A stretch of 64,000 nt of DNA, taken from the IMG/VR virus record IMGVR_UViG_3300027974_000032, positions 11,015 to 75,014 of that record; one strand, given 5' to 3'. Under the pieces are notes generated by a model, which had not been told where the DNA came from, did no database searches, and saw only the letters and a program-made list of their open reading frames with translations. The stretch comes from a virus. Positions 2,049 through 14,418 of the stretch are shown in pieces. The translations under genes were made by a program, and so were the position numbers. Position 1 is the stretch's first letter; every line of letters starts with the position of its first letter.

Positions 2049-3409
2049 TGGCTGACCCTATTAGATAAATAATAATTTAAATCTTCTGGAGTTCCAACTC
2101 CCCACATTTTTTTAATATCGCTAGTAAAAATTCTTTTATTATCTAAAATTGCTTCATTAAAAACTGGGCAGACATAAAACTCATTATTAGTTCTAATATT
2201 TTTATCAATCATTTGTTCTGAATACTTAACAAAATCAGAACCATGTTTCCAATAATATATACCAACTGTTGCTATATCACTAATAGGCTTTTTTTCTGCT
2301 ACTTCAACAACTAATCCATTATCATCAACCCTAGCATATGACCATTTTGGATGTGTTGATTTAAATGTTGCTATTCCTCCATCTGCATTTTTTGTCATTA
2401 GGTCATATATAAACTGTCGACTATTCCATTCTACTATTTGATCAGAGTTTGCCATAATAAGCGGACTTTCGCTATCTATATATTCTTTGGCTAAAAGGCA
2501 TGTTACTGCAGCCCCCTCAGTAACTCCATCTACCTGAACAATATTGCATTCTGGAGTGATAAGATTTAATAAATAAGACAGATTATATTTTTCGTAGTGC
2601 TCTTTTTGTACTATATAGGTATACTTTGCTTTTACCCCAAGAGACTCCACCACAGCCTGAATCATGGGTTTGCCATCTACTTCGACCAATGGCTTAGGGA
2701 ATACGTATCCAGCATCCTTAAAACGGCTTCCAAGCCCAGCCATGGGTATTAGAACATTAAGGCCCTGATCTTTCCAAGTTGCTCCGCTATATTTTAAAAG
2801 ACTAATAGCCTTATTAATCTTATCTTCTGTAAGGTCTGTTCTATTCTTAATTTCAATTAGATTTGCCTTGCTATCTCTTGCTGCTAATTTCCCAACAAGA
2901 CTATCTTCAAAAATAACTGTCTCATCTGCAATTACACCAAAGTGTGACATGGCTTGCCAGTACATTTCTGGGTGTGGCTTTGGATTTTTAACATCTTCAT
3001 TACTTACAACGTGGTCTACTAAGTTTAAGACTCCTAAACTTTTGAGACAGTCAATAACTGTTTTACTAATGCTGTTACTTGCTACGGCTATATTAATATT
3101 ATTATCTTTAATCATAGTAAGCAGTCTAACTAAATCTTTGTCTTCTGGAATATTGGAAAACATTGTGCTTGTTATTTCTTGTTTTATTGACCACACACTA
3201 TCAAACATTTCTTCTGGAAGACCTTTGTATTTATTTAAAAGGCTTAGTTTTGCTTTTGTTGGTAGACCCTCATATATATTTTCTTGCTCTTCTTTTGTTA
3301 TAACATAAGATATGTCAAGTGATCTAAGTGCGTCATTGAGTGCATCAAAATGAATTGTTTTGCTATCAACAAGTACCCCATCTAAATCAAAAGCAATCAA
3401 CTTATTCAT
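2045..3409 (-). CDS. HAD phosphatase - nucleotidyltransferase fusion
   Basis: N-terminal FDLDGVLVDS, KPHP, FEDS (HAD); C-terminal LIPMAGLGSRF...PKPL, EKKPIS..ATVGIYY, GTPEDL (sugar-phosphate NTP transferase). Confidence 0.9.
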   Translation of the reverse strand: MNKLIAFDLDGVLVDSKTIHFDALNDALRSLDISYVITKEEQENIYEGLPTKAKLSLLNKYKGLPEEMFDSVWSIKQEITSTMFSNIPEDKDLVRLLTMIKDNNINIAVASNSISKTVIDCLKSLGVLNLVDHVVSNEDVKNPKPHPEMYWQAMSHFGVIADETVIFEDSLVGKLAARDSKANLIEIKNRTDLTEDKINKAISLLKYSGATWKDQGLNVLIPMAGLGSRFKDAGYVFPKPLVEVDGKPMIQAVVESLGVKAKYTYIVQKEHYEKYNLSYLLNLITPECNIVQVDGVTEGAAVTCLLAKEYIDSESPLIMANSDQIVEWNSRQFIYDLMTKNADGGIATFKSTHPKWSYARVDDNGLVVEVAEKKPISDIATVGIYYWKHGSDFVKYSEQMIDKNIRTNNEFYVCPVFNEAILDNKRIFTSDIKKMWGVGTPEDLNYYLSNRVSH

Positions 3410-4403
3410 CTTTGTTCCTTGAGTCTATAAAGTTAAATGCTGGAGTAGACACAATTCTTTTAATTAATGTATCTGCTTCTGTATTTATATTTGGAAAACC
3501 AAAATAGTTGCAGTTTTTTCTAAAAGCAATTGCATGATAAAAATGATGTTGACCTTCTTCAAACCCAAACCGATTTTCTGTTTTATCCATATAGTTTACA
3601 TGAGAAACATTTGTTATTAGTGTTGTCATTAATTCTATAACTGTGCCACCTGGCTGCATAAACATAACATTTGTCAGTCCACCACCAGTAATTCCTACTA
3701 TAGTATCAACTTCATAGAAATAGTTTAACTGATCTTCAAAAGAATCAAAATCTTCTGGGATCACAACCTCAAATCCATTATCAAGAAAAAAGTTTTCAAG
3801 TTTTTCTTCATCATCTATTCTATTATAGGTATTTCTTGTCAGTTTTTTAGAAAACTCTTCTCCATATTGCTTATTCTTATAATTAGTTAAACCCTTTCTA
3901 CTCAAATATACTTTTCTAAAAGGCTTAACATCTTGATTTTTAATAAAAGGCATTACATATTTCATCAATATGTTTGATGCATTATGATCTACAACCCTCT
4001 GGGTTCTTATGTAGAAATTATCAATATTAACGCTGCTACCCTTTGTTAGATCTACCTTTTCATAATTAACATTATGATAATCTAATAGTTTAAAGCAAAA
4101 CTCATTTACCTTGTGAGTCACTGGTGTTCTATTTGGAATAGACACATCTATAATAAACAATGTATCAGGATTAAGTTCAAATATATGAAAGACCGTTCCT
4201 AAAAAATCATGCATACAATGATAAAAACTTATTGGAAGCCTCATGATCATTTTTGTTTGATCTGAATAAAAGGACATACTTTCTTCATTAACTGGCTCTA
4301 ACACACGAAAGTCTGGATTATATCCAACATTCCAAGAATACTTATCCTTGATGAGTTCATAGTCACTATCAGAAGTGGTTATTGTTTGAATTGTTACTGC
4401 CAT
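3402..4403 (-). CDS. glycosyltransferase family 61 (DUF563)
   Basis: FYHCMHD, KVYLSR, PEDF.SFEDQL.YF, IVGITGGGLTNVMFMQPGGTVIEL. Confidence 0.85.
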   Translation of the reverse strand: MAVTIQTITTSDSDYELIKDKYSWNVGYNPDFRVLEPVNEESMSFYSDQTKMIMRLPISFYHCMHDFLGTVFHIFELNPDTLFIIDVSIPNRTPVTHKVNEFCFKLLDYHNVNYEKVDLTKGSSVNIDNFYIRTQRVVDHNASNILMKYVMPFIKNQDVKPFRKVYLSRKGLTNYKNKQYGEEFSKKLTRNTYNRIDDEEKLENFFLDNGFEVVIPEDFDSFEDQLNYFYEVDTIVGITGGGLTNVMFMQPGGTVIELMTTLITNVSHVNYMDKTENRFGFEEGQHHFYHAIAFRKNCNYFGFPNINTEADTLIKRIVSTPAFNFIDSRNKDE

Positions 4404-4687
4404 TATTGCTCCATAGTCATTCTAGTCCAAAAACTTCCCCAGTCTTTTTTATTCCTATGACTATTATACTCCCTTGATATCTCACCTGACTCTAGGTATA
4501 CCCCGCCCCAAATACCCCATTCCTTCCCAGTAACTCCAACTGCAAAACAGTTTTTGCTTACTGGACATGAAGAACAAAGTTTATCTACGGCTGGCCTCAG
4601 AATCTCATCGTCTTCATATTTATCAAAGAATAAGTCTGTGTCATAGTCTAAACAAGAAGATTGATCTTTCCATTCATGTTTAGCCAT
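4403..4687 (-). CDS. whiB: WhiB-family Fe-S transcription factor (start refined to ATG 4687)
   Basis: W....C...DTDLFF...C..CPV...C......GIWGG: four Cys plus the G[IV]WGG turn. Confidence 0.92.
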   Translation of the reverse strand: MAKHEWKDQSSCLDYDTDLFFDKYEDDEILRPAVDKLCSSCPVSKNCFAVGVTGKEWGIWGGVYLESGEISREYNSHRNKKDWGSFWTRMTMEQ

Positions 4688-4898
4688 TAGTTTCCACGAA
4701 CTTACTTGGTATATCCCAACCAGTTCTATTTGCCTCGTATCTAGTCTGAATATGCCATTTGCCATTAACTAGAGCACCATTTGCAGATGACCTAGCCTTA
4801 TCAGATGGGATGGAGTTTACTACTGTCCAACCATCCCAAGATAGTGTCTTATTGTTTTCAACAACTTTTTCCATATGTTCTAATGTTTTGATAATCAT
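4680..4898 (-). CDS. hypothetical protein
   Basis: 72 aa ORF, RBS upstream. Confidence 0.7.
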   Translation of the reverse strand: MIIKTLEHMEKVVENNKTLSWDGWTVVNSIPSDKARSSANGALVNGKWHIQTRYEANRTGWDIPSKFVETNG

Positions 4899-5999: not shown

Positions 6000-6243
6000 T
6001 TACAAACTCCAAAAATTGTTCACGAGTTTTGGCACCATTCATCCGCTTAACCTCTATACCATCATTAATCAAAACGTAGGTGGGAACAGATTTGATGCCA
6101 AATTTTTCTATTAGTTCAAGTTCTGTATCTGCATCAACAAATATAAAATCAACCAACCCCTCACGCTTAAGTTCATCGGCAACTGGCTTTGTCCTTTGAC
6201 ATGGATTACACCAATCTGCTGTAAAATAAAGTACATGCTTCAT
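5992..6243 (-). CDS. thioredoxin
   Basis: FTADWCNPC active site, SVPT cis-Pro motif. Confidence 0.9.
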   Translation of the reverse strand: MKHVLYFTADWCNPCQRTKPVADELKREGLVDFIFVDADTELELIEKFGIKSVPTYVLINDGIEVKRMNGAKTREQFLEFVNE

Positions 6244-6881
6244 TTAACTAATACTACACTAAACTTGGTGTTTTTGCAAGACTTCAAACCTGTGGCAATA
6301 AAGTTTTTTTCAGTTTTATCTACAGACAAACTCCATCTAACTTTAATTGAAACCCAATTTACTAAGTACTCACAAGCATAGGCTTTATTTGTTGGCATCC
6401 ATTCTGCTGGATCTTGGTCAGACTTAGATCTATTTGAACCACCAGTTACAGCAATTAAGTGACGAGGATCTGTTTGGTCATTAGCATACATCTCCTTCTT
6501 TGCTGCATCCCAAGCAGATGCACCAGAGTCCCAAGCCTCTGCAAGTGGAACCATATGATCTACATCTAGTTTCCCTGCTTCTGTAACCACAATATTATCA
6601 TAGATGCTTAGCCATTGCCCACCCTTAATTACACAGCCTTTTTCAACTACAGGCTTCTTAACTGCCTCAGCAATAATTACTGCCTTGCGTGAGTCACAAC
6701 CATTTCCAGCACCTGTCCAGTGCTTAAATAGTGTACGCTTATATCCTGTACGAACCTCATCTGCTACTTTAAGAGTATTCAAAGCAGTTGTAGCATCCTT
6801 ATATGATACTGTACTTGCTGCTTGAGCAGCACTTGCAACCATAGAAATACTAATGATTGCGGTTAATAATAGTTTACGCAT
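6240..6881 (-). CDS. secreted HNH endonuclease (DUF1524 type); start refined to ATG 6881
   Basis: Signal peptide MRKLLLTAII...AQA; DVDHMVPLAEAWDSGA...YAND...LIAV....NRSKSD.DPAEW.P. Confidence 0.88.
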   Translation of the reverse strand: MRKLLLTAIISISMVASAAQAASTVSYKDATTALNTLKVADEVRTGYKRTLFKHWTGAGNGCDSRKAVIIAEAVKKPVVEKGCVIKGGQWLSIYDNIVVTEAGKLDVDHMVPLAEAWDSGASAWDAAKKEMYANDQTDPRHLIAVTGGSNRSKSDQDPAEWMPTNKAYACEYLVNWVSIKVRWSLSVDKTEKNFIATGLKSCKNTKFSVVLVK

Positions 6882-7083
6882 TCTTTCTCCCCCAATTAAT
6901 TTTATCCCAAATTCTTTCATGCCAATAATAAATTCCAACCTTAACAATTGTTTCCCACATTGCAATTAGAGCAGAAAGACTTCCTTTTCCAGTAATAGCA
7001 TAGGCAACCAAAAAAGATGATAATGTACCAAAAATACGATAACTTAATGACTTCGTAAATGATCTTTGTTTAGTTACTTTCAT
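6874..7083 (-). CDS. DUF2061 membrane protein
   Basis: RS..KS.SYR...YY.HERIW.KI.WG. Confidence 0.85.
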   Translation of the reverse strand: MKVTKQRSFTKSLSYRIFGTLSSFLVAYAITGKGSLSALIAMWETIVKVGIYYWHERIWDKINWGRKNA

Positions 7084-7283
7084 TCTCTACCCCATGACGT
7101 TTTGTTCCATGCTCTTTCATGAACATAATAAAGTATAAAGTTTATGCCATTTGTTAAAAGAGTTCCAACCCAGGCTACTTTGATCTCACCACTAACAATA
7201 TAGATTGATATAAAAGTTGTTATAAGTGCTATAACTCTCCATGTTAATGATTTTATTAATGATCTTTTTTTATTTACGTTCAT
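7080..7283 (-). CDS. DUF2061 membrane protein
   Basis: RSLIKSLTWR...YYVHERAW.K..WG. Confidence 0.85.
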   Translation of the reverse strand: MNVNKKRSLIKSLTWRVIALITTFISIYIVSGEIKVAWVGTLLTNGINFILYYVHERAWNKTSWGRE

Positions 7284-7413
7284 TTTTGTCGCCAAACATT
7301 ATTCGCTCTTCTGCTTCATTCATTTTCTTGCCAGACTCTTCAATATAACTAAATGCTGAAACACTTATTTTTTTTATAAAATTAAATATAATAATAAATA
7401 CTTTATTCATCAT
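7270..7413 (-). CDS. small hypothetical protein, 47 aa (not in ORF track)
   Basis: MMNKVFIIIFNFIKKISVSAFSYIEESGKKMNEAEERIMFGDKNERK; ATGA overlap with the upstream stop. Confidence 0.5.
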   Translation of the reverse strand: MMNKVFIIIFNFIKKISVSAFSYIEESGKKMNEAEERIMFGDKNERK

Positions 7414-8144
7414 TTTTCCTTTCCAGAAATCACAAGTGTTGGTTGCTGAACCCTGTTTTTTAAAACAAAGTCCATTATATCACTTAACTTTCCTTCCATC
7501 ATAAACTCATCTTGTGTTGTTAAGTTGCTCAAAAGAGTCATCTCTTTTTCTGCACCCAAATGATACAGTAACTCTTTAAAAAATATATCCTGTATCTCAT
7601 GATGATAAAATATTACTGATGGATATTGACTATTTTTTATATTTTCGTATATATATTTTTTGTTCTTATCATAAAAGATCATTCCATAAAAAGAAAATGA
7701 TTGACCATAGTAAAATTTAGAATAAGATAGTGAGTCAATTACTGAGGATGGGCCTGGTAAAATTTTGTATTTAATACCTTTTGATATGGCTAACTGCCTA
7801 ATTGTATCAAATGGATCTTGAACAATTGCACTTCCCTCATCAGATAAGCACAAAACAGTTTCATTTAAAGAAATATGCCTCATTACCTCATCAGACATTC
7901 TTTGTCCGCTATTGTTGACACCCTTTAAATCATGAGTTATACCATTTGTCATAAAATCTCTTGGAGAAAAACTAACTATCTCTCCAGTAAAGTTTAACTC
8001 ATAGCGATCAATTATTTCTTTTATGGTTTCTTCATTTTCAACAGCAAGAACTTCTGCTTTTTCAATATGATTGACTAAATTATATGTTAAGTCGTCTAGG
8101 TTACCTATTGGCATTGTTCCAAATATTAGTTTTGCATTACTCAC
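7410..8144 (-). CDS. RsmI-like tetrapyrrole-methylase-fold SAM methyltransferase (divergent)
   Basis: PIGNLDD.T, LSDEGS....DP and ILPGPSS...SL match RsmI motifs TPIGNL.D, VSDAG.P..SDPG and PGPSA. Confidence 0.7.
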   Translation of the reverse strand: MSNAKLIFGTMPIGNLDDLTYNLVNHIEKAEVLAVENEETIKEIIDRYELNFTGEIVSFSPRDFMTNGITHDLKGVNNSGQRMSDEVMRHISLNETVLCLSDEGSAIVQDPFDTIRQLAISKGIKYKILPGPSSVIDSLSYSKFYYGQSFSFYGMIFYDKNKKYIYENIKNSQYPSVIFYHHEIQDIFFKELLYHLGAEKEMTLLSNLTTQDEFMMEGKLSDIMDFVLKNRVQQPTLVISGKEK

Positions 8145-8902
8145 AGTCCTAGTTCCTTGCGTTTTTCAGTTGCAGATATAGCATGTATCTCTGCACCCAA
8201 ATCAACCTGCTCAATCTTATAACCGACATCACGACCATATACAATGTTAGTGATATTAGGAAGTCTTAATACTAGTGCACCATCCATAAATTCATCCTTG
8301 GCAATGTACTCTTTAACCTGATCAAACTTAAGTGGATCTTTCTCACTTGTATTATAAGTGTTACGGACTCCAAGAAGGACTTGATCTGTTCTCTTCCCCG
8401 CCTCTTTGTAAAGTGCGTGATGGCCTTCGTGCCATGGTTGATATCTACCAAGCATAAGAGTTGTTGGTGCTGACCAATCATGGAGATTAAACTTGTCTAT
8501 AATATGTGATGACTTCTCTACTGCACCAAGATTATGACTAATAAAAGATACATCAGGACTCTCTGGACGCTCAAACATCTTATTTGTGTCTTCAAAACGG
8601 CCCTCTGCAATGGTATCCATAAATACTAAAATATCTGGCTTTCCAAATGCTGCACGAGTCAATTCTGTTGGACATACAAAATCTACAATTACTGGAGCAA
8701 CACCTTGCTTAGCAATTAGTCTTGCCATCTCACCCATACGACGTGCTTGCTCAATTCTATCTTCTGATGTAAAGCCTAGATCTGAGTTAACAGTTGCACG
8801 AACTTCATCTGCGTTAAGATGAATAGCATTAATGCGTTCCTTAAGTGTTTTTGCAAGTTCAGTTTTCCCTGATCCTGGAAGCCCAATAATTTGTATAATC
8901 AT
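8141..8902 (-). CDS. adenylylsulfate kinase (CysC-like) fused to an HxGH nucleotidyltransferase domain
   Basis: GLPGSGKT P-loop, ADEVR...DLGF..EDR; C-terminal GRYQPWHEGH and ISAT..R. Confidence 0.88.
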   Translation of the reverse strand: MIIQIIGLPGSGKTELAKTLKERINAIHLNADEVRATVNSDLGFTSEDRIEQARRMGEMARLIAKQGVAPVIVDFVCPTELTRAAFGKPDILVFMDTIAEGRFEDTNKMFERPESPDVSFISHNLGAVEKSSHIIDKFNLHDWSAPTTLMLGRYQPWHEGHHALYKEAGKRTDQVLLGVRNTYNTSEKDPLKFDQVKEYIAKDEFMDGALVLRLPNITNIVYGRDVGYKIEQVDLGAEIHAISATEKRKELGL

Positions 8903-8904
8903 TT

Positions 8905-9486
8905 TTATTCTCCTATGTATTGTTCTGGTACTATATCAATAATCATATGAATTCTATCCTCATGACTATTATTTGTTACGTAGTGGACTTTGCTATTATT
9001 AATTTCCCAGCACTCTCCAACTTTCATATTAATACTTTCTTCATCAACGTGAAACATAACATCTTTATTTGTTTTTAATGGGATATGGTGTCTTCTTACT
9101 ATTCCCAAATATTTTGATTCGTCTGCGTGTGGAATAATATCACTATCTGGAAGTAGTTTAACTATCATGGCAAGCGATGCTTTTCCATTATGAACAACCT
9201 CAAGGTCTTTCATTATTTTATCTGCAATAGATAAAACATGCACACTATTTGCTAAAGGGAATACTGCCAACTTTTCATGTGGTTCCCATCCTGGCTTAAA
9301 AGATCTTAAATAGTATGTATTTGTATTCATATGAACACTATTTGGCTGATTTTGTCTAGATGTATCAAGTCTCCACTCAGTTGTAAACTTGCCTACTATT
9401 TCTGACAACTCTGATACATCATAGGACCTTATAAGATTAAAGTTAAAATCCTCATTTAATTTGTTGTATGCATTCATACTAATCAT
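8905..9486 (-). CDS. aspartyl/asparaginyl beta-hydroxylase-like 2OG oxygenase
   Basis: I.PHAD...RRHHIPL.T...GECWEINN...H.V.N....RIH..ID. Confidence 0.85.
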   Translation of the reverse strand: MISMNAYNKLNEDFNFNLIRSYDVSELSEIVGKFTTEWRLDTSRQNQPNSVHMNTNTYYLRSFKPGWEPHEKLAVFPLANSVHVLSIADKIMKDLEVVHNGKASLAMIVKLLPDSDIIPHADESKYLGIVRRHHIPLKTNKDVMFHVDEESINMKVGECWEINNSKVHYVTNNSHEDRIHMIIDIVPEQYIGE

Positions 9487-10111
9487 TATACCCTAAAGCC
9501 CTAAACTCCCAAGACCAATCATGGGCAATCATATCTAAATAAACAGTTGAAAAAACATCTTTATAATTTATGCCTTTGGGCCTATAGGCTTTTTCATTAG
9601 CAGTTACATTAATGGTTGGCAAACCATGCAATGGAAGAATTCTATTAATCTCTTGCTCAAGACCTTTTTCATGCCTCAATATATCTGTTACTGCTATCTC
9701 TCCATTGACCGTATAGATATCCTTTGTACTTTTCATCCAAGGTCCATTGCTAAACTGATTATTAAAATAGTAATCAACTAGCCTATCTTGCTCTAGTTTG
9801 CTAAGTGAATTCCAATGAACATTTATTATTTCAGATCTAAAGAAAAAATCAGAAAGAACCATTTCGTATGGATGTCTAACTATCGTATAAGACTTTACAC
9901 CAGATAAATCAAGTTCTTGATTTGCCTCGAGCCATGTTGTATGATTAACAAACTTTCCAAAGTTTCTTGGTCTATGCTCTTTATTGGGTGGATTGATCAA
10001 GGTAACAACTGCAGAGTCTGGTAAAATTTTTGATAACTCTACCTCAAGAGAAGTACTACCAACTTTCATATTTTTGATTAACAGAAAGTTATGGTCTTTA
10101 GAAAAGATCAT
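9479..10111 (-). CDS. sulfotransferase family protein
   Basis: KVGSTS (5'-PSB loop), VRHPYE...S (3'-PB motif), C-terminal D...F..LGY. Confidence 0.8.
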   Translation of the reverse strand: MIFSKDHNFLLIKNMKVGSTSLEVELSKILPDSAVVTLINPPNKEHRPRNFGKFVNHTTWLEANQELDLSGVKSYTIVRHPYEMVLSDFFFRSEIINVHWNSLSKLEQDRLVDYYFNNQFSNGPWMKSTKDIYTVNGEIAVTDILRHEKGLEQEINRILPLHGLPTINVTANEKAYRPKGINYKDVFSTVYLDMIAHDWSWEFRALGYND

Positions 10112-11060: not shown

Positions 11061-11168
11061 TTACTTCTTCTTTTTTGCTTTTACTGTCCAGTATGGTAAC
11101 TTAAGGTTATCTCCAGACCATTCATAACCAAGCAACTTGACAACAAATTTAATAATTTTAATTCTCAT
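11061..11168 (-). CDS. small basic protein, 35 aa (not in ORF track)
   Basis: MRIKIIKFVVKLLGYEWSGDNLKLPYWTVKAKKKK; AAGGAG RBS, TAATG coupling. Confidence 0.6.
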   Translation of the reverse strand: MRIKIIKFVVKLLGYEWSGDNLKLPYWTVKAKKKK

Positions 11169-11368
11169 TATTTAACTCCTTTCCCAAACTTTGCCCATAA
11201 TCTTTCATGTACAAAATATCCTAGTGACTCAATTGCAATGTATAGAATTGCTCCCAAACCTGCATACTCCCATTCACCAGTAAATATATATATTATTCCT
11301 GCAAGGACAACAAGATGAAATGTTTCCCAACTCAATGTCTTTATGGATGTTCTTCTCTTTGACTCCAT
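11168..11368 (-). CDS. DUF2061 membrane protein
   Basis: RT.IKTLSW...YFVHERLW. Confidence 0.8.
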   Translation of the reverse strand: MESKRRTSIKTLSWETFHLVVLAGIIYIFTGEWEYAGLGAILYIAIESLGYFVHERLWAKFGKGVK

Positions 11369-12944: not shown

Positions 12945-14369
12945 CTATACTATAATTTTTGTATTATAGTTTGACTCCCATTCAGCAATATCTAACTCAT
13001 CATTTAGTAGTGGTTGTCCCTTAATATTTAGGCTAGTATTTAAAAGAACTGGCACTCCAGTTTCTAGATAGAATTTATTAAGCAATCTCCACAGTCCAGG
13101 GTGATCTTTTTTATTCACAGTCTGAACTCTTGATGTTCCGTCAGCATGCACGACAGATGGTATTTTTTCTGGTTGTAAGCACTTTACCGTATACTGCATA
13201 TAGGGACTTGAAAAATCCATATCAAACCATTTACTTGCATGCTCTTCCATAACCACAGGAGCAAACGGTCTAAACTGCTCCCTCTGTTTAATTTTATTTA
13301 CTTTGTTTTTTATGTCTGGGTCTCTAGGATCTGCCAATATACTTCTATTTCCTAGTGCTCTTGGTCCAAACTCTGCTCTTCCTACTGCTACTACTGCTAT
13401 CTTATCTTTTTTCAATGCTTCAAAAATTTTATCTACTGGATAATCTCCACCAAGGTCATGACCAAGATATGGCCCCTTCCACTCTAGATGTTTTCCGTAT
13501 AGTGCTGCTGCTGCCCCTAAAGAACTTCCAGCATCACCTGGGTTGGGCATAATCCAAATCATATCAAAAATGTTCCATAGTAAAGTATTTGCTGAAGAGT
13601 TTAATGCACATCCACCCATAAATACTAAATTCTTTTTACCAGTAATAGAATAAGCCATATGCATAAAATCATTTAGTCTTTGCTGATAAACAACTTGAAC
13701 GGCTGCTGCAATGTCAAATCTATCTTGTTGATTTATATGCATGCCCCAGTCGGTAATTCCTTTATGAAAATTATACTTTTGCTGATTATGTCTAGGAAAG
13801 TATTCATCAACTTCTTTATAGTATCTCTTCCAGTCCCCATAAGCAGCCATACCCATCATAATATATTCTTCTTGATTTGGCATCAAACCAATTAATTGTG
13901 TGAATGCTGAATAAAATAACCCAAAACTAACAGGATAGTTTTGTTTATATTTTAACCTAATCTTATCACCTTCTCCAATCCAAATTGTAGAAGTATTATA
14001 CTCACCCATAGCATCAAGCACTACAATGACTGCATCATTAAAATCGCTTGTATAGTATCCCGCTGCTGCATGGGAATAGTGATGGCTAAAAGATTTTCTA
14101 GGTATAGAGTCAAGATAAAACTTGGGCTTCCAGTCCCCACAGCCACCCTTTAAAAATAGCCTAGAGGCTTTTAGAAGGGGTTTTTCATAGTAGGCAATAT
14201 AGTCTGGTGCACCATAGGATAATGCATCTTTTACTAAACTATTATTGATGTACCAATCATTTTTTTCTTTACTATATCTTTCTGCATGCCCAGCAAAAAG
14301 GATCTCTCCATCTTTAATTAAAGACAGGGAGGCATCATGAGATGTCTCATTGACTCCTAAAATTATCAT
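12945..14369 (-). CDS. carbamoyltransferase (NodU/CmcH family); start refined to ATG 14369
   Basis: ILG.....HDAS, ERY...K, HH.SHAA, GGCALN, GDAG, EFGPRALGNRSILADP, RE.FRPFAP, H.DGTSRVQTV, LLNTS.N. Confidence 0.95.
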   Translation of the reverse strand: MIILGVNETSHDASLSLIKDGEILFAGHAERYSKEKNDWYINNSLVKDALSYGAPDYIAYYEKPLLKASRLFLKGGCGDWKPKFYLDSIPRKSFSHHYSHAAAGYYTSDFNDAVIVVLDAMGEYNTSTIWIGEGDKIRLKYKQNYPVSFGLFYSAFTQLIGLMPNQEEYIMMGMAAYGDWKRYYKEVDEYFPRHNQQKYNFHKGITDWGMHINQQDRFDIAAAVQVVYQQRLNDFMHMAYSITGKKNLVFMGGCALNSSANTLLWNIFDMIWIMPNPGDAGSSLGAAAALYGKHLEWKGPYLGHDLGGDYPVDKIFEALKKDKIAVVAVGRAEFGPRALGNRSILADPRDPDIKNKVNKIKQREQFRPFAPVVMEEHASKWFDMDFSSPYMQYTVKCLQPEKIPSVVHADGTSRVQTVNKKDHPGLWRLLNKFYLETGVPVLLNTSLNIKGQPLLNDELDIAEWESNYNTKIIV

Positions 14370-14374
14370 ATGTA

Positions 14375-14386
14375 TATGGTACCATA
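14375..14386. promoter_or_regulatory. palindromic bidirectional extended -10 element
   Basis: TATGGTACCATA reads TGG-TACCAT on both strands, between divergent genes. Confidence 0.6.
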
Positions 14387-14418
14387 AATACATAGGCATC
14401 AGAATTAGAGGCAACAAT

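Follow-up and report, generated by a model that had tools for sequence, protein, structure and literature searches.

The stretch of viral DNA analysed here (the window; 64,000 nucleotides of the IMG/VR record IMGVR_UViG_3300027974_000032) carries on its minus strand a gene for a 253-residue protein in which an APS-kinase-type domain is fused to a miniature nucleotidyltransferase domain, and two genes away from it lies a sulfotransferase gene. The features of the locus, with the evidence for each, are as follows.

9479..10111, minus strand: 210-aa Sulfotransfer_2-type protein, probable PAPS consumer (HMM, ESM Atlas)
8905..9486, minus strand: 193-aa 2OG oxygenase resembling Asp/Asn beta-hydroxylases, located between sulfotransferase and fusion (PF05118, E 4.3e-16)
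8141..8902, minus strand: whole fusion gene, APS-kinase-type domain plus mini HxGH nucleotidyltransferase, 253 aa (translation, PHROG, model)
8489..8902, minus strand: N-terminal APS-kinase-type P-loop domain, residues 1-138, with a shortened lid (Pfam, Foldseek, alignments to 2yvu, 3uie and 3cr7)
8861..8884, minus strand: Walker A P-loop GLPGSGKT, residues 7-14 (motif check; K13 invariant)
8798..8815, minus strand: NADEVR, counterpart of the APS-kinase DGDNxR (alignment to APS kinases; family conservation)
8144..8467, minus strand: C-terminal mini HxGH nucleotidyltransferase, residues 146-253, apparently NadM-derived, candidate ATP sulfurylase (profile search, domain model, VIA-align)
8420..8449, minus strand: GRYQPWHEGH, the HxGH (HIGH) nucleotide-binding motif, residues 152-161 (motif check, conservation)
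8360..8368, minus strand: VRN, residues 179-181 (conservation; alignments to 2qjt and 1f9a)
8219..8239, minus strand: YGRDVGY, family hallmark, residues 222-228 (conservation; HMMER anchors)
8159..8179, minus strand: ISATEKR, the ISxTxxR phosphate-binding motif, residues 242-248 (motif check, conservation)
8141-8143, minus strand: stop codon of the fusion gene

Translation reads through the 253 codons of the fusion gene without an internal stop, and the AlphaFold2 model of the whole protein has a mean pLDDT of 94.3. PHROG 10255 (‘kinase’) spans the entire protein (E 1.5e-63); since the match is full-length, the fusion belongs to a conserved family rather than being an accidental join. Phage homologues cover both domains at ~40% identity. 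The original prediction had described a CysC-like P-loop domain joined to an HxGH domain, which Pfam and PHROG 10255 confirm, and the motifs GLPGSGKT, GRYQPWHEGH and ISATEKR are present at verified coordinates. A megablast search of the region against cultured phages returned no match, and our literature search found no specific paper on the fusion family or on phage PAPS synthesis.

The kinase half is an APS-kinase-type domain with a shortened lid

Pfam APS_kinase (PF01583) matches residues 2-85 of the fusion with an E-value of 1.7e-15 (57.8 bits against a cut-off of 21.1), the match reaching only positions 4-91 of the 152 in the profile. Pfam AAA_28 also matches, weakly (E 9.6e-4), APS_kinase being twelve orders of magnitude better. 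When the model of the whole protein was compared with the PDB using Foldseek, the matches listed, down to about rank 49, were all APS kinases or PAPS synthetases. The Walker A lysine K13 is invariant in 51 family members. In NADEVR, the counterpart of the DGDN motif, Asn takes the place of the first Asp, a position at which the family has Asn, Asp, Ser or Glu; the second Asp, D32, is kept in at least 90% of family members, and R35 is invariant. Along with F44 and R49, both nearly invariant, R35 aligns with the R, F and R of the plant APS kinase 3uie, residues which we take to contact APS (phosphosulfate and adenine) in the plant enzyme; a literature search for APS-contacting residues found nothing specific.

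The lid is the most reduced part of the domain: the stretch between MDT and FERP has about half the canonical length and so falls short of a full ~30-residue lid, with R/K-aromatic-DTN as its conserved remnant in the family. Both Asp residues of the D87GD89N motif are required in human PAPSS1 (PMC11697783), and the APS-kinase lid, which bears catalytic Arg, Lys and Phe residues, is important (2026 Entamoeba preprint). Given the substitution of the first DGDN Asp and the loss of most of the lid, APS kinase activity of the viral domain is not assured.

The small domain resembles NadM-type adenylyltransferases

Pfam CTP_transf_like matches residues 150-188 with an E-value of 6.6e-4, although its 20.3 bits are slightly below the cut-off of 21. 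Across 41 domains of the family the G, R, Q, P, H, G and H of the HxGH motif are invariant, H158-x-G-H161 supplying the HxxH signature, and so are the S, A, T and R of ISATEKR. A profile built from these 41 domains and run against PDB sequences finds NadM 2qjt (E 6.9e-10) and the NMNAT 1f9a (E 3e-8). Sat (PF01747) gives no Pfam match to the protein and none to the 41-domain profile at E-values up to 10, and where the fusion matches Sat-containing PDB chains, only the kinase parts are involved. On these sequence grounds (Pfam and the PDB profile) we reject direct kinship of the small domain to Sat, a relation that the original prediction had suggested; judged by sequence, the domain appears to derive from NadM-type NMN adenylyltransferases instead.

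It is nonetheless a divergent member of that branch. Scores against the NCBIfam NMNAT models are weak (NF002243, 25.4 bits against a cut-off of 127; TIGR01527, 20.8 against 181). In comparison with archaeal NMNAT about 25 central residues are missing (HMMER aligns query 9-71 with 1f9a 5-67 and query 88-113 with 1f9a 109-133), and the region lost presumably contributes nicotinamide-binding residues. The YGRDVGY hallmark, in which G223, R224 and G227 are invariant, sits at the junction of this deletion. R180 of VRN is likewise family-specific and nearly invariant, whereas NadM-type NMNATs have GS(A/C) there. To our knowledge, every characterised enzyme of the NadM/NMNAT branch uses a phosphate-ester acceptor and not sulfate.

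The small domain modelled alone has a pLDDT of 94.8. VIA-align gives this model Z-scores of 9.2 to NMNAT and PPAT and 8.1 to Thermus Sat 1v47 (110 residues aligned at 20% identity, tied with many HIGH enzymes). NMNAT, PPAT, the cytidylyltransferases (including the Fom1 domain, Z 8.1) and Sat are tied within one Z unit, and because of this tie the fold does not settle the function: superposing a predicted structure on Sat and on NMNAT, as had been suggested with the original prediction, yields a fold match to both but does not discriminate between them.

The two domains are paired across phages and bacteria

The mini-domain always travels with an APS-kinase-type domain, and the pairing is conserved through several gene arrangements. 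Kinase-then-nucleotidyltransferase fusions number 66 among viral ORFs; the reverse order also exists (P0168), and phages additionally carry the two as split, overlapping genes in either order. SAR86-family bacteria have split, overlapping genes with the kinase first in 20/20 loci. In P0162 the mini-domain is fused to a textbook CysC whose DGDN motif and lid are both intact, an architecture that is present on 47 marine metagenome contigs and is represented in five independent sources.

SAR11 HIMB1495 encodes a second, canonical-looking CysC that has no mini-domain and carries an unrelated C-terminal extension of ~200 aa; the contig ends ~40 codons upstream of the match.

Sulfotransferases are recurrent neighbours

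The product of 9479-10111 has no direct match in Pfam or NCBIfam. It is matched (E 1.4e-6) by an HMM of seven viral Sulfotransfer_2-type neighbours that was built without it, and a representative of this seven-neighbour cluster matches PF03567 (E 2.7e-10). In the ESM Atlas, the clusters closest to it are Sulfotransfer_2 (score 0.97), in agreement with the earlier placing of a sulfotransferase two genes from the fusion. No match to the 210-aa protein was found in cultured phages by tblastn.

Across 80 viral loci, the true neighbours found most often near the fusion are sulfotransferases, which belong to two unrelated Pfam types. One lies within 8 kb, often directly adjacent, in 46 of the 80, a count that overstates the number of independent associations since many of these loci are related to each other. 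Homologues of the 2OG oxygenase recur beside the fusion as well (13/80). Among bacteria, Inquilinus and a Rhodospirillaceae genome have a Sulfotransfer_3 gene at a distance of 3 kb from the fusion; no sulfotransferase was detected near the fusion in Sano-like phages or near most SAR11 loci, and some bacterial loci sit within glycan clusters that have no recognised sulfotransferase. The annotated commonest neighbour clusters include no glutamine-kinase-like or phosphonate-biosynthesis genes.

Two candidate clues in SAR86 G002 were set aside. DUF2061, for which the literature gives no function, was considered as sulfate-related; it occurs only in this one of five bacterial genomes, far from the pair. 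YeiH, a ‘putative sulfate exporter’ encoded directly upstream of the pair, is given little weight because it is not beside the pair in 20 other SAR86-family loci.

Canonical sulfurylases are absent from the viral and SAR86-family carriers

The original prediction pointed to the lack of any other sulfurylase in the window, and this holds for the whole 75-kb viral record (estimated to be 69% complete), in which neither Sat (PF01747) nor CysD/CysH (PF01507) was found. More broadly, Sat and PAPS_reduct (CysD/CysH) are absent from 50/50 viral records, five of them complete. The 61 SAR86-family genomes show the same gap: Sulfotransfer_3 is present in 59 and the mini-nucleotidyltransferase in 56, Sat and AprB are found in none, and the single genome with a strong CysD/CysH-like gene is one of the five that lack the mini-nucleotidyltransferase. 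SAR11 has AprB and no Sat. Inquilinus and a Rhodospirillaceae genome encode the fusion and a complete CysH-CysD-CysNC set, and thus the fusion is not strictly a replacement.

No NadD, NadM-Nudix or NadR reaches its model cut-off in the SAR86-family genomes either, and the same missing-enzyme logic could therefore assign the mini-domain to NAD synthesis. All six SAR86-family genomes checked encode a separate full-length CTP_transf_like protein of 372-384 aa, which could be the SAR86 NaMNAT. As for phages, a published survey reports that every NadM-carrying phage also has NadV (PMC9503650). NadV (NAPRTase, PF04095) occurs in only 3/48 carrier viral records, and it is absent from 4/5 complete metagenomic genomes, from Sano and from Clavibacter phage 33; in this respect the mini-domain does not behave like phage NadM.

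Proposed function and competing explanations

The idea that one protein makes PAPS gains real support from the joining of the mini-domain to canonical CysC, from its sulfotransferase neighbours, and from the lack of canonical sulfurylases in the phages and in the SAR86-family genomes that carry it together with sulfotransferases. We propose that the fusion is a compact PAPS synthase working in two steps, with a NadM-derived ATP sulfurylase as its small domain, a reading that we hold to be evenly poised between right and wrong. In the proposed mechanism, the mini-nucleotidyltransferase would have lost the part of its NadM-type ancestor that holds the large NMN acceptor. The HxGH and ISxTxxR motifs would bind ATP, and AMP would be transferred to sulfate, which we infer to be the acceptor and which is probably held by R180 and R224, yielding APS and PPi. 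The APS-kinase-type domain would then phosphorylate the 3'-OH of APS to give PAPS, pulling the unfavourable first step forward, and the neighbouring sulfotransferase (9479-10111) would consume the PAPS. Its target may be a glycan, or otherwise some other product of the surrounding tailoring genes; one of these is the probable identity of the sulfated molecule.

The small domain might instead have nothing to do with sulfate: the kinase half alone would serve sulfation, turning host APS into PAPS for the phage sulfotransferase, and its partner would perform another adenylyl transfer, most simply as a minimal NMNAT (NMN/NaMN to NAD) fused for co-expression or regulation. This strikes us as unlikely. 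Phages are known to rebuild NAD (PMC9503650), the best sequence matches of the domain are NadM-type NMNATs, and the domain is near-core in the SAR86 family, precisely where NadD, NadM-Nudix and NadR fall below their cut-offs; yet an NMNAT would have no evident reason to stay with an APS kinase in at least three independent arrangements, canonical CysC included. Nor does the domain look or travel like an NMNAT, given the missing central residues, the model score far under the cut-off (25 against 127 bits) and the lack of NadV in 45 of the 48 carrier records. In SAR86 the 372-384-aa protein could take the NaMNAT role, and these bacteria would still be without a source of APS. We also consider a NadR-like salvage enzyme, whose P-loop domain would phosphorylate nicotinamide riboside and whose small domain would adenylylate NMN, rebuilding NAD+ against NAD-depleting defences. 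A HIGH nucleotidyltransferase joined to a P-loop kinase is indeed the NadR architecture (PMC9503650), and both the weak AAA_28 match and the NadM-like motifs of the small domain fit it. What makes this reading very improbable is the kinase itself, with its far stronger APS_kinase match, its listed top structural matches to APS kinases only and its retained Arg/Phe/Arg aligned with APS-contacting residues; moreover, the protein reaches 17.5 bits with the NadR model TIGR01526, whose cut-off is 341, and neither the canonical CysC fusion nor the sulfotransferase neighbours have a place in such a scheme.

Alternatively, the product could be a PAPS-like donor, the small domain joining a nucleotide to some other small anion (phosphoramidate, phosphonate or selenate) and the kinase adding the 3'-phosphate. 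An APS-kinase homologue with a non-sulfate nucleotide as its substrate has a precedent, reported by the Raushel laboratory: in the C. jejuni O-methyl-phosphoramidate pathway a cytidylyltransferase is followed by a CysC-homologue cytidine diphosphoramidate kinase. The departures of the viral kinase from canonical CysC could be read in this light, as could the bacterial glycan clusters without a recognised sulfotransferase and the presence of the phosphonate-acting Fom1 cytidylyltransferase domain among the tied fold matches. Still, we regard this as improbable: the small domain also occurs joined to a fully canonical CysC, glutamine-kinase-like and phosphonate-biosynthesis genes are missing from the annotated commonest neighbour clusters, and the recurrent partners belong to Pfam sulfotransferase families, the known members of which use PAPS.

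Relation to known enzymes

Taken as a PAPS synthase, the fusion resembles the known ones (human PAPSS1/2; Aquifex Sat-CysC, 2gks) in combining, within a single polypeptide, an APS kinase and an adenylyltransferase of the HxxH type; either domain order is found in nature, and in each case the product feeds sulfotransferases, as is proposed here. It differs in size, with 253 aa in total as compared to ~550-620, and in its adenylyltransferase, which has ~110 residues, is apparently NadM-derived and has no Pfam ATP-sulfurylase match, whereas Sat has ~350-400 residues and its own motifs. The kinase lid is also shortened, and the first Asp of DGDN replaced. With NadM and archaeal NMNAT (1f9a, 2qjt), its best sequence and fold matches, the small domain shares GRxQPxHxGH, NPF and ISxTxxR; unlike them it has ~25 fewer central residues, the new R180 and YGRDVGY, no Nudix partner and a constant APS-kinase-type companion, most carrier phages being without NadV. 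NadR likewise fuses a HIGH nucleotidyltransferase to a P-loop kinase for successive steps of one pathway, but the kinase here is of the APS-kinase family and not the NadR RNK family.

The proposed chemistry has parallels as well. CoA synthase combines PPAT and dephospho-CoA kinase, and C. jejuni Cj1416/Cj1415 are reportedly a phosphoramidate cytidylyltransferase and a cytidine diphosphoramidate 3'-kinase. Both systems transfer a nucleotidyl group to a small acceptor, after which an APS-kinase-like or related P-loop kinase 3'-phosphorylates the product to give an activated donor; their acceptors and downstream transferases are different, the partners here being sulfotransferases. Finally, rhizobial NodPQ-NodH is, like the fusion in Inquilinus and the Rhodospirillaceae genome, a second, dedicated sulfate-activation module that adjoins a sulfotransferase and exists alongside CysDNC. 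NodPQ are CysD/CysN-CysC homologues, however, while the first step here would be performed by an unrelated mini-enzyme.

Implications

We know of only two kinds of ATP sulfurylase, Sat and CysDN. The ~110-residue domain may constitute a third, independently evolved class and, with its kinase partner, may supply the PAPS in SAR86, some SAR11, some soil Alphaproteobacteria and hundreds of phages; for this broader claim we put the chances slightly short of even. It would then be the smallest sulfurylase known and of separate evolutionary origin. In SAR11, with AprB and no Sat, the candidate domain might also catalyse the reverse reaction and release ATP from APS as sulfite is oxidised. A single-chain PAPS generator of 250 residues would moreover be of use in enzymatic sulfation. 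Should the domain prove to be a minimal NMNAT instead, it would fill the apparent gap in SAR86 NAD synthesis, which would also be worth knowing.

SAR86 is among the most abundant bacteria of the ocean, and SAR86, SAR11, the soil Alphaproteobacteria and the phages that carry the mini-domain are regarded as unable to activate sulfate. If the PAPS synthase reading is correct, it would explain how SAR86, without Sat, CysD or AprB, keeps its near-universal sulfotransferases supplied with PAPS. ‘cysC’ auxiliary genes in viromes would have to be read differently, and many aquatic phages would bring a self-contained sulfation kit, activation and transferase together, to hosts that may not activate sulfate at all.

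The kinase–nucleotidyltransferase fusion is real and conserved

Translation of the minus-strand ORF at 8141-8902 yields 253 residues, in which Pfam recognises APS_kinase (residues 2-85, E 1.7e-15) followed by CTP_transf_like (residues 150-188, E 6.6e-4, slightly below the cut-off). Adenylyl-sulfate kinase models top the NCBIfam ranking, followed by weak NadM-type NMNAT models, and PHROG 10255 ('kinase') spans the protein end to end (E 1.5e-63). Full-length homologues (38-42% identity) are found in phages of Xylella, Stenotrophomonas, Xanthomonas and Clavibacter; Ralstonia jumbo phages carry the kinase part only. Since the motif coordinates were also confirmed, and AlphaFold2, given a 51-member alignment, modelled the protein with a pLDDT of 94.3, the originally predicted fusion of a CysC-like domain with a mini HxGH nucleotidyltransferase (the mini-domain) is real and conserved. 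We found no paper describing the family, whose members are labelled 'kinase', 'adenylylsulfate kinase' or 'hypothetical protein' in databases. The IMG/VR viral record from which the window derives spans 75 kb (completeness estimated at 69%, GC 32-40%) and has almost every gene on one strand, a WhiB gene and a capsid protease most similar to those of Streptomyces phages.

Searches of representative proteins with the fusion returned ~90 clusters with E-values of 1e-30 or below. The kinase-then-nucleotidyltransferase order is seen in 66 viral ORFs and the reverse order in the relative P0168; in phages, the two domains may also be encoded by separate but translationally coupled genes, with either one first, and the split genes of SAR86-family loci overlap by 8 nt (20/20). 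In proteins of the P0162 type (304-325 aa; 47 marine metagenome contigs), the mini-domain is N-terminal to a textbook CysC with DGDN, FISP and the KGLYKKAR lid intact, and the 90% cluster of P0162 holds records from JGI, ENA, Logan, NCBI and Tara. The mini-domain and the APS-kinase-type domain always travel together, and fusion to a textbook CysC links the mini-domain with the chemistry of APS and PAPS, not with that of NAD.

The usual flanking genes of the P0162-type fusion on the marine contigs (L165-L212) encode a POT-family transporter (29 loci) and a TPR plus 2OG-oxygenase protein (27 loci); at 17 loci a 664-aa protein lies directly downstream on the same strand. Some bacterial members have a hydrophobic, probably membrane-spanning extension N-terminal to the kinase, which would place them at the membrane: it precedes both domains in P0130, and P0267 has it without the nucleotidyltransferase.

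Features of the two domains

Among the Foldseek matches to the PDB listed for the fusion model (to about rank 49), all are APS kinases or PAPS synthetases, and alignments to 2yvu, 3uie and 3cr7 cover the P-loop, the DGDNxR region and the DLGF..DR..RR region. Across 51 members (35-50% identity) K13 and R35 are invariant, and D32, F44, R49, Q52 and P78 are kept in at least 90%; R35, F44 and R49 align with the residues of plant APS kinase that contact APS. However, where canonical CysC has the first Asp of DGDN, the fusion has Asn, at a position that varies across the family, and the canonical full lid is approximately halved, the Pfam match stopping at profile position 91 of 152. Both Asp residues of DGDN are important in human PAPSS1 (PMC11697783), and the usual lid provides catalytic Arg, Lys and Phe residues (2026 Entamoeba preprint).

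While the mini-domain had been suggested to be kin to Sat-type ATP sulfurylases, a profile of 41 such domains matched Francisella NadM (E 6.9e-10), Methanocaldococcus NMNAT (E 3e-8) and then more NMNATs, with no match to Sat. The profile aligns to 1f9a in two blocks (query 9-71 to 5-67, and 88-113 to 109-133), and the gap between them indicates that ~25 residues are missing from the central NMNAT region, the source of nicotinamide-contacting residues. Family-specific invariants flank this gap: R180 (in VRD/VRN; GSA in NMNATs) and Y-G-R224-D-V-G-Y. The proposed structural superposition did not discriminate. By VIA-align, the domain-only model (pLDDT 94.8) does match Thermus ATP sulfurylase (Z 8.1, 110 residues aligned), but this does not separate it from NMNAT, PPAT and NadM (Z 9.2), a cytidylyltransferase (8.3) or the Fom1 cytidylyltransferase (8.1); with scores thus tied, the fold leaves the function undecided.

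The neighbourhood of the fusion

Genes around the fusion are listed below; those for the GT61, WhiB, GmrSD_C-like, CHAP and carbamoyltransferase proteins look like a glycan-tailoring set, reminiscent of Nod-factor decoration by carbamoylation, sulfation and methylation:

3402-4403, minus: GT61 glycosyltransferase
4403-4765, minus: WhiB
6240-6965, minus: GmrSD_C-like protein with hydrophobic N-terminal stretch
6874-7083, 7080-7295 and 11168-11368, minus: three small DUF2061 membrane proteins flanking the module (E 1e-12 to 1e-17)
7410-8144, minus: RsmI-like TP_methylase, 244 aa (PF00590 E 8e-11; TIGR00096 E 1.3e-13, well under cut-off)
9479-10111, minus: sulfotransferase, 210 aa
11368-12015, minus: CHAP endolysin
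12945-14417, minus: NodU/CmcH-type carbamoyltransferase

A 4-nt overlap between the stop of the fusion gene and the start of the TP_methylase gene makes co-translation of the two probable; the target of methylation by RsmI-type enzymes is a ribose 2'-OH. The identification of the nearby 210-aa protein as a sulfotransferase is supported: it matches a Sulfotransfer_2-type HMM made without it (E 1.4e-6), and the ESM Atlas clusters closest to it are Sulfotransfer_2 (score 0.97). The first 11 kb of the same record contain another sulfotransferase-like ORF (L002:2227-2844, plus strand), with a weak match to a Sulfotransfer_3-type HMM (E 4.7e-4).

Sulfotransferases are the commonest genuine neighbour clusters across 80 viral loci: a ~284-aa type (PF13469, E 8e-19) occurs at 29 and a ~195-aa type (PF03567, E 2.7e-10), often abutting the fusion, at 13. 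HMMs made from both clusters place a sulfotransferase within 8 kb of the fusion at 46 of the 80. Also recurrent are Asp/Asn-hydroxylase-like oxygenases (10-13 loci) and DUF2061 (11 loci), for which we found no published function. No sulfotransferase was detected in Sano-like phages; in phage DLP6 it is 90 kb from the fusion.

The mini-domain is the sole visible candidate for APS formation in SAR86

The window had been noted to contain no other sulfurylase, and this extends to its whole 75-kb viral record, from which Sat and PAPS_reduct (CysD/CysH) are absent, as they are from all 50 other viral records (five complete). A complete SAR86 genome combines the kinase–nucleotidyltransferase pair and two strong sulfotransferases with no Sat, CysD/CysH or AprB. 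Among 61 SAR86-family genomes, each at least 80% complete, 56 have the mini-domain and 59 Sulfotransfer_3; none has Sat, nor AprB by a model that does match SAR11, and the single strong PAPS_reduct gene (1/61) is in a genome without the mini-domain. PAPS consumers and an APS-kinase-type enzyme are present in this family, with the mini-domain as the sole visible candidate for APS formation. Directly upstream of the pair in the complete genome is a YeiH-family 'putative sulfate exporter' (L159:9049-9948, plus strand; TIGR00698 E 6.8e-31), not found beside the pair at 20 other SAR86-family loci.

In both Inquilinus and a Rhodospirillaceae genome, the fusion lies 3 kb away from a Sulfotransfer_3 gene, and a separate CysH-CysD-CysNC set is also present. 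Some SAR11 and other bacterial fusions are housed in glycan clusters; SAR11 split pairs are mostly amid unrelated metabolic genes. A ~330-aa protein abuts the kinase–nucleotidyltransferase genes in a Flavobacteriaceae MAG (L155:1716-2723, plus strand; pyruvate-kinase barrel match only, PF00224 E 1.3e-60), with a same-cluster homologue in one SAR11 genome (L157:5335-6315, plus strand). An AT-rich SAR11 region near a contig end (L245, G001:C2) encodes a CysC-like kinase with complete lid and a ~200-aa C-terminal extension. Since SAR11 HIMB1495 has AprB (C1:816205-816450, E 2.7e-33) and lacks Sat, its APS-to-ATP-and-sulfate step of sulfite oxidation is without an assigned enzyme, for which the mini-domain acting in reverse is a candidate.

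A putative compact PAPS synthase

A 'missing enzyme' argument could also cast the mini-domain as an NMNAT, with the kinase alone serving sulfation, since in the 61 SAR86-family genomes no NadM-Nudix or NadR match reached its cut-off, nor did any NadD match save one with internal stops. We consider it unlikely that the kinase alone serves sulfation and the small domain is an NMNAT or another adenylyltransferase. Under an NMNAT role the CysC pairing would go unexplained, and 6/6 SAR86-family genomes checked encode, besides CoaD and RibF, another full-length CTP_transf_like protein (372-384 aa, the full domain in its C-terminal half; L254:728-1846, minus strand, in SAR86 genome G002, with equivalents in the five others), which is possibly an unrecognised NaMN/NMN adenylyltransferase. 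Furthermore, most carrier phage records (45/48) lack NadV, whereas in a published survey every NadM-carrying phage also has it (PMC9503650). Production of a PAPS-like donor other than PAPS, on the model of phosphoramidate biosynthesis in Campylobacter, is less likely still, and NadR-like NAD salvage is the most doubtful alternative.

The most economical reading, to which we give an even chance, is that the fusion acts as a compact PAPS synthase, in which the mini-domain would adenylylate sulfate and the kinase domain would then add the 3'-phosphate; the product would supply the adjacent sulfotransferase. With somewhat greater confidence, we favour the broader view that the family provides a pathway from an adenylyl-X to a 3'-phosphate donor for sulfotransferase-type enzymes.
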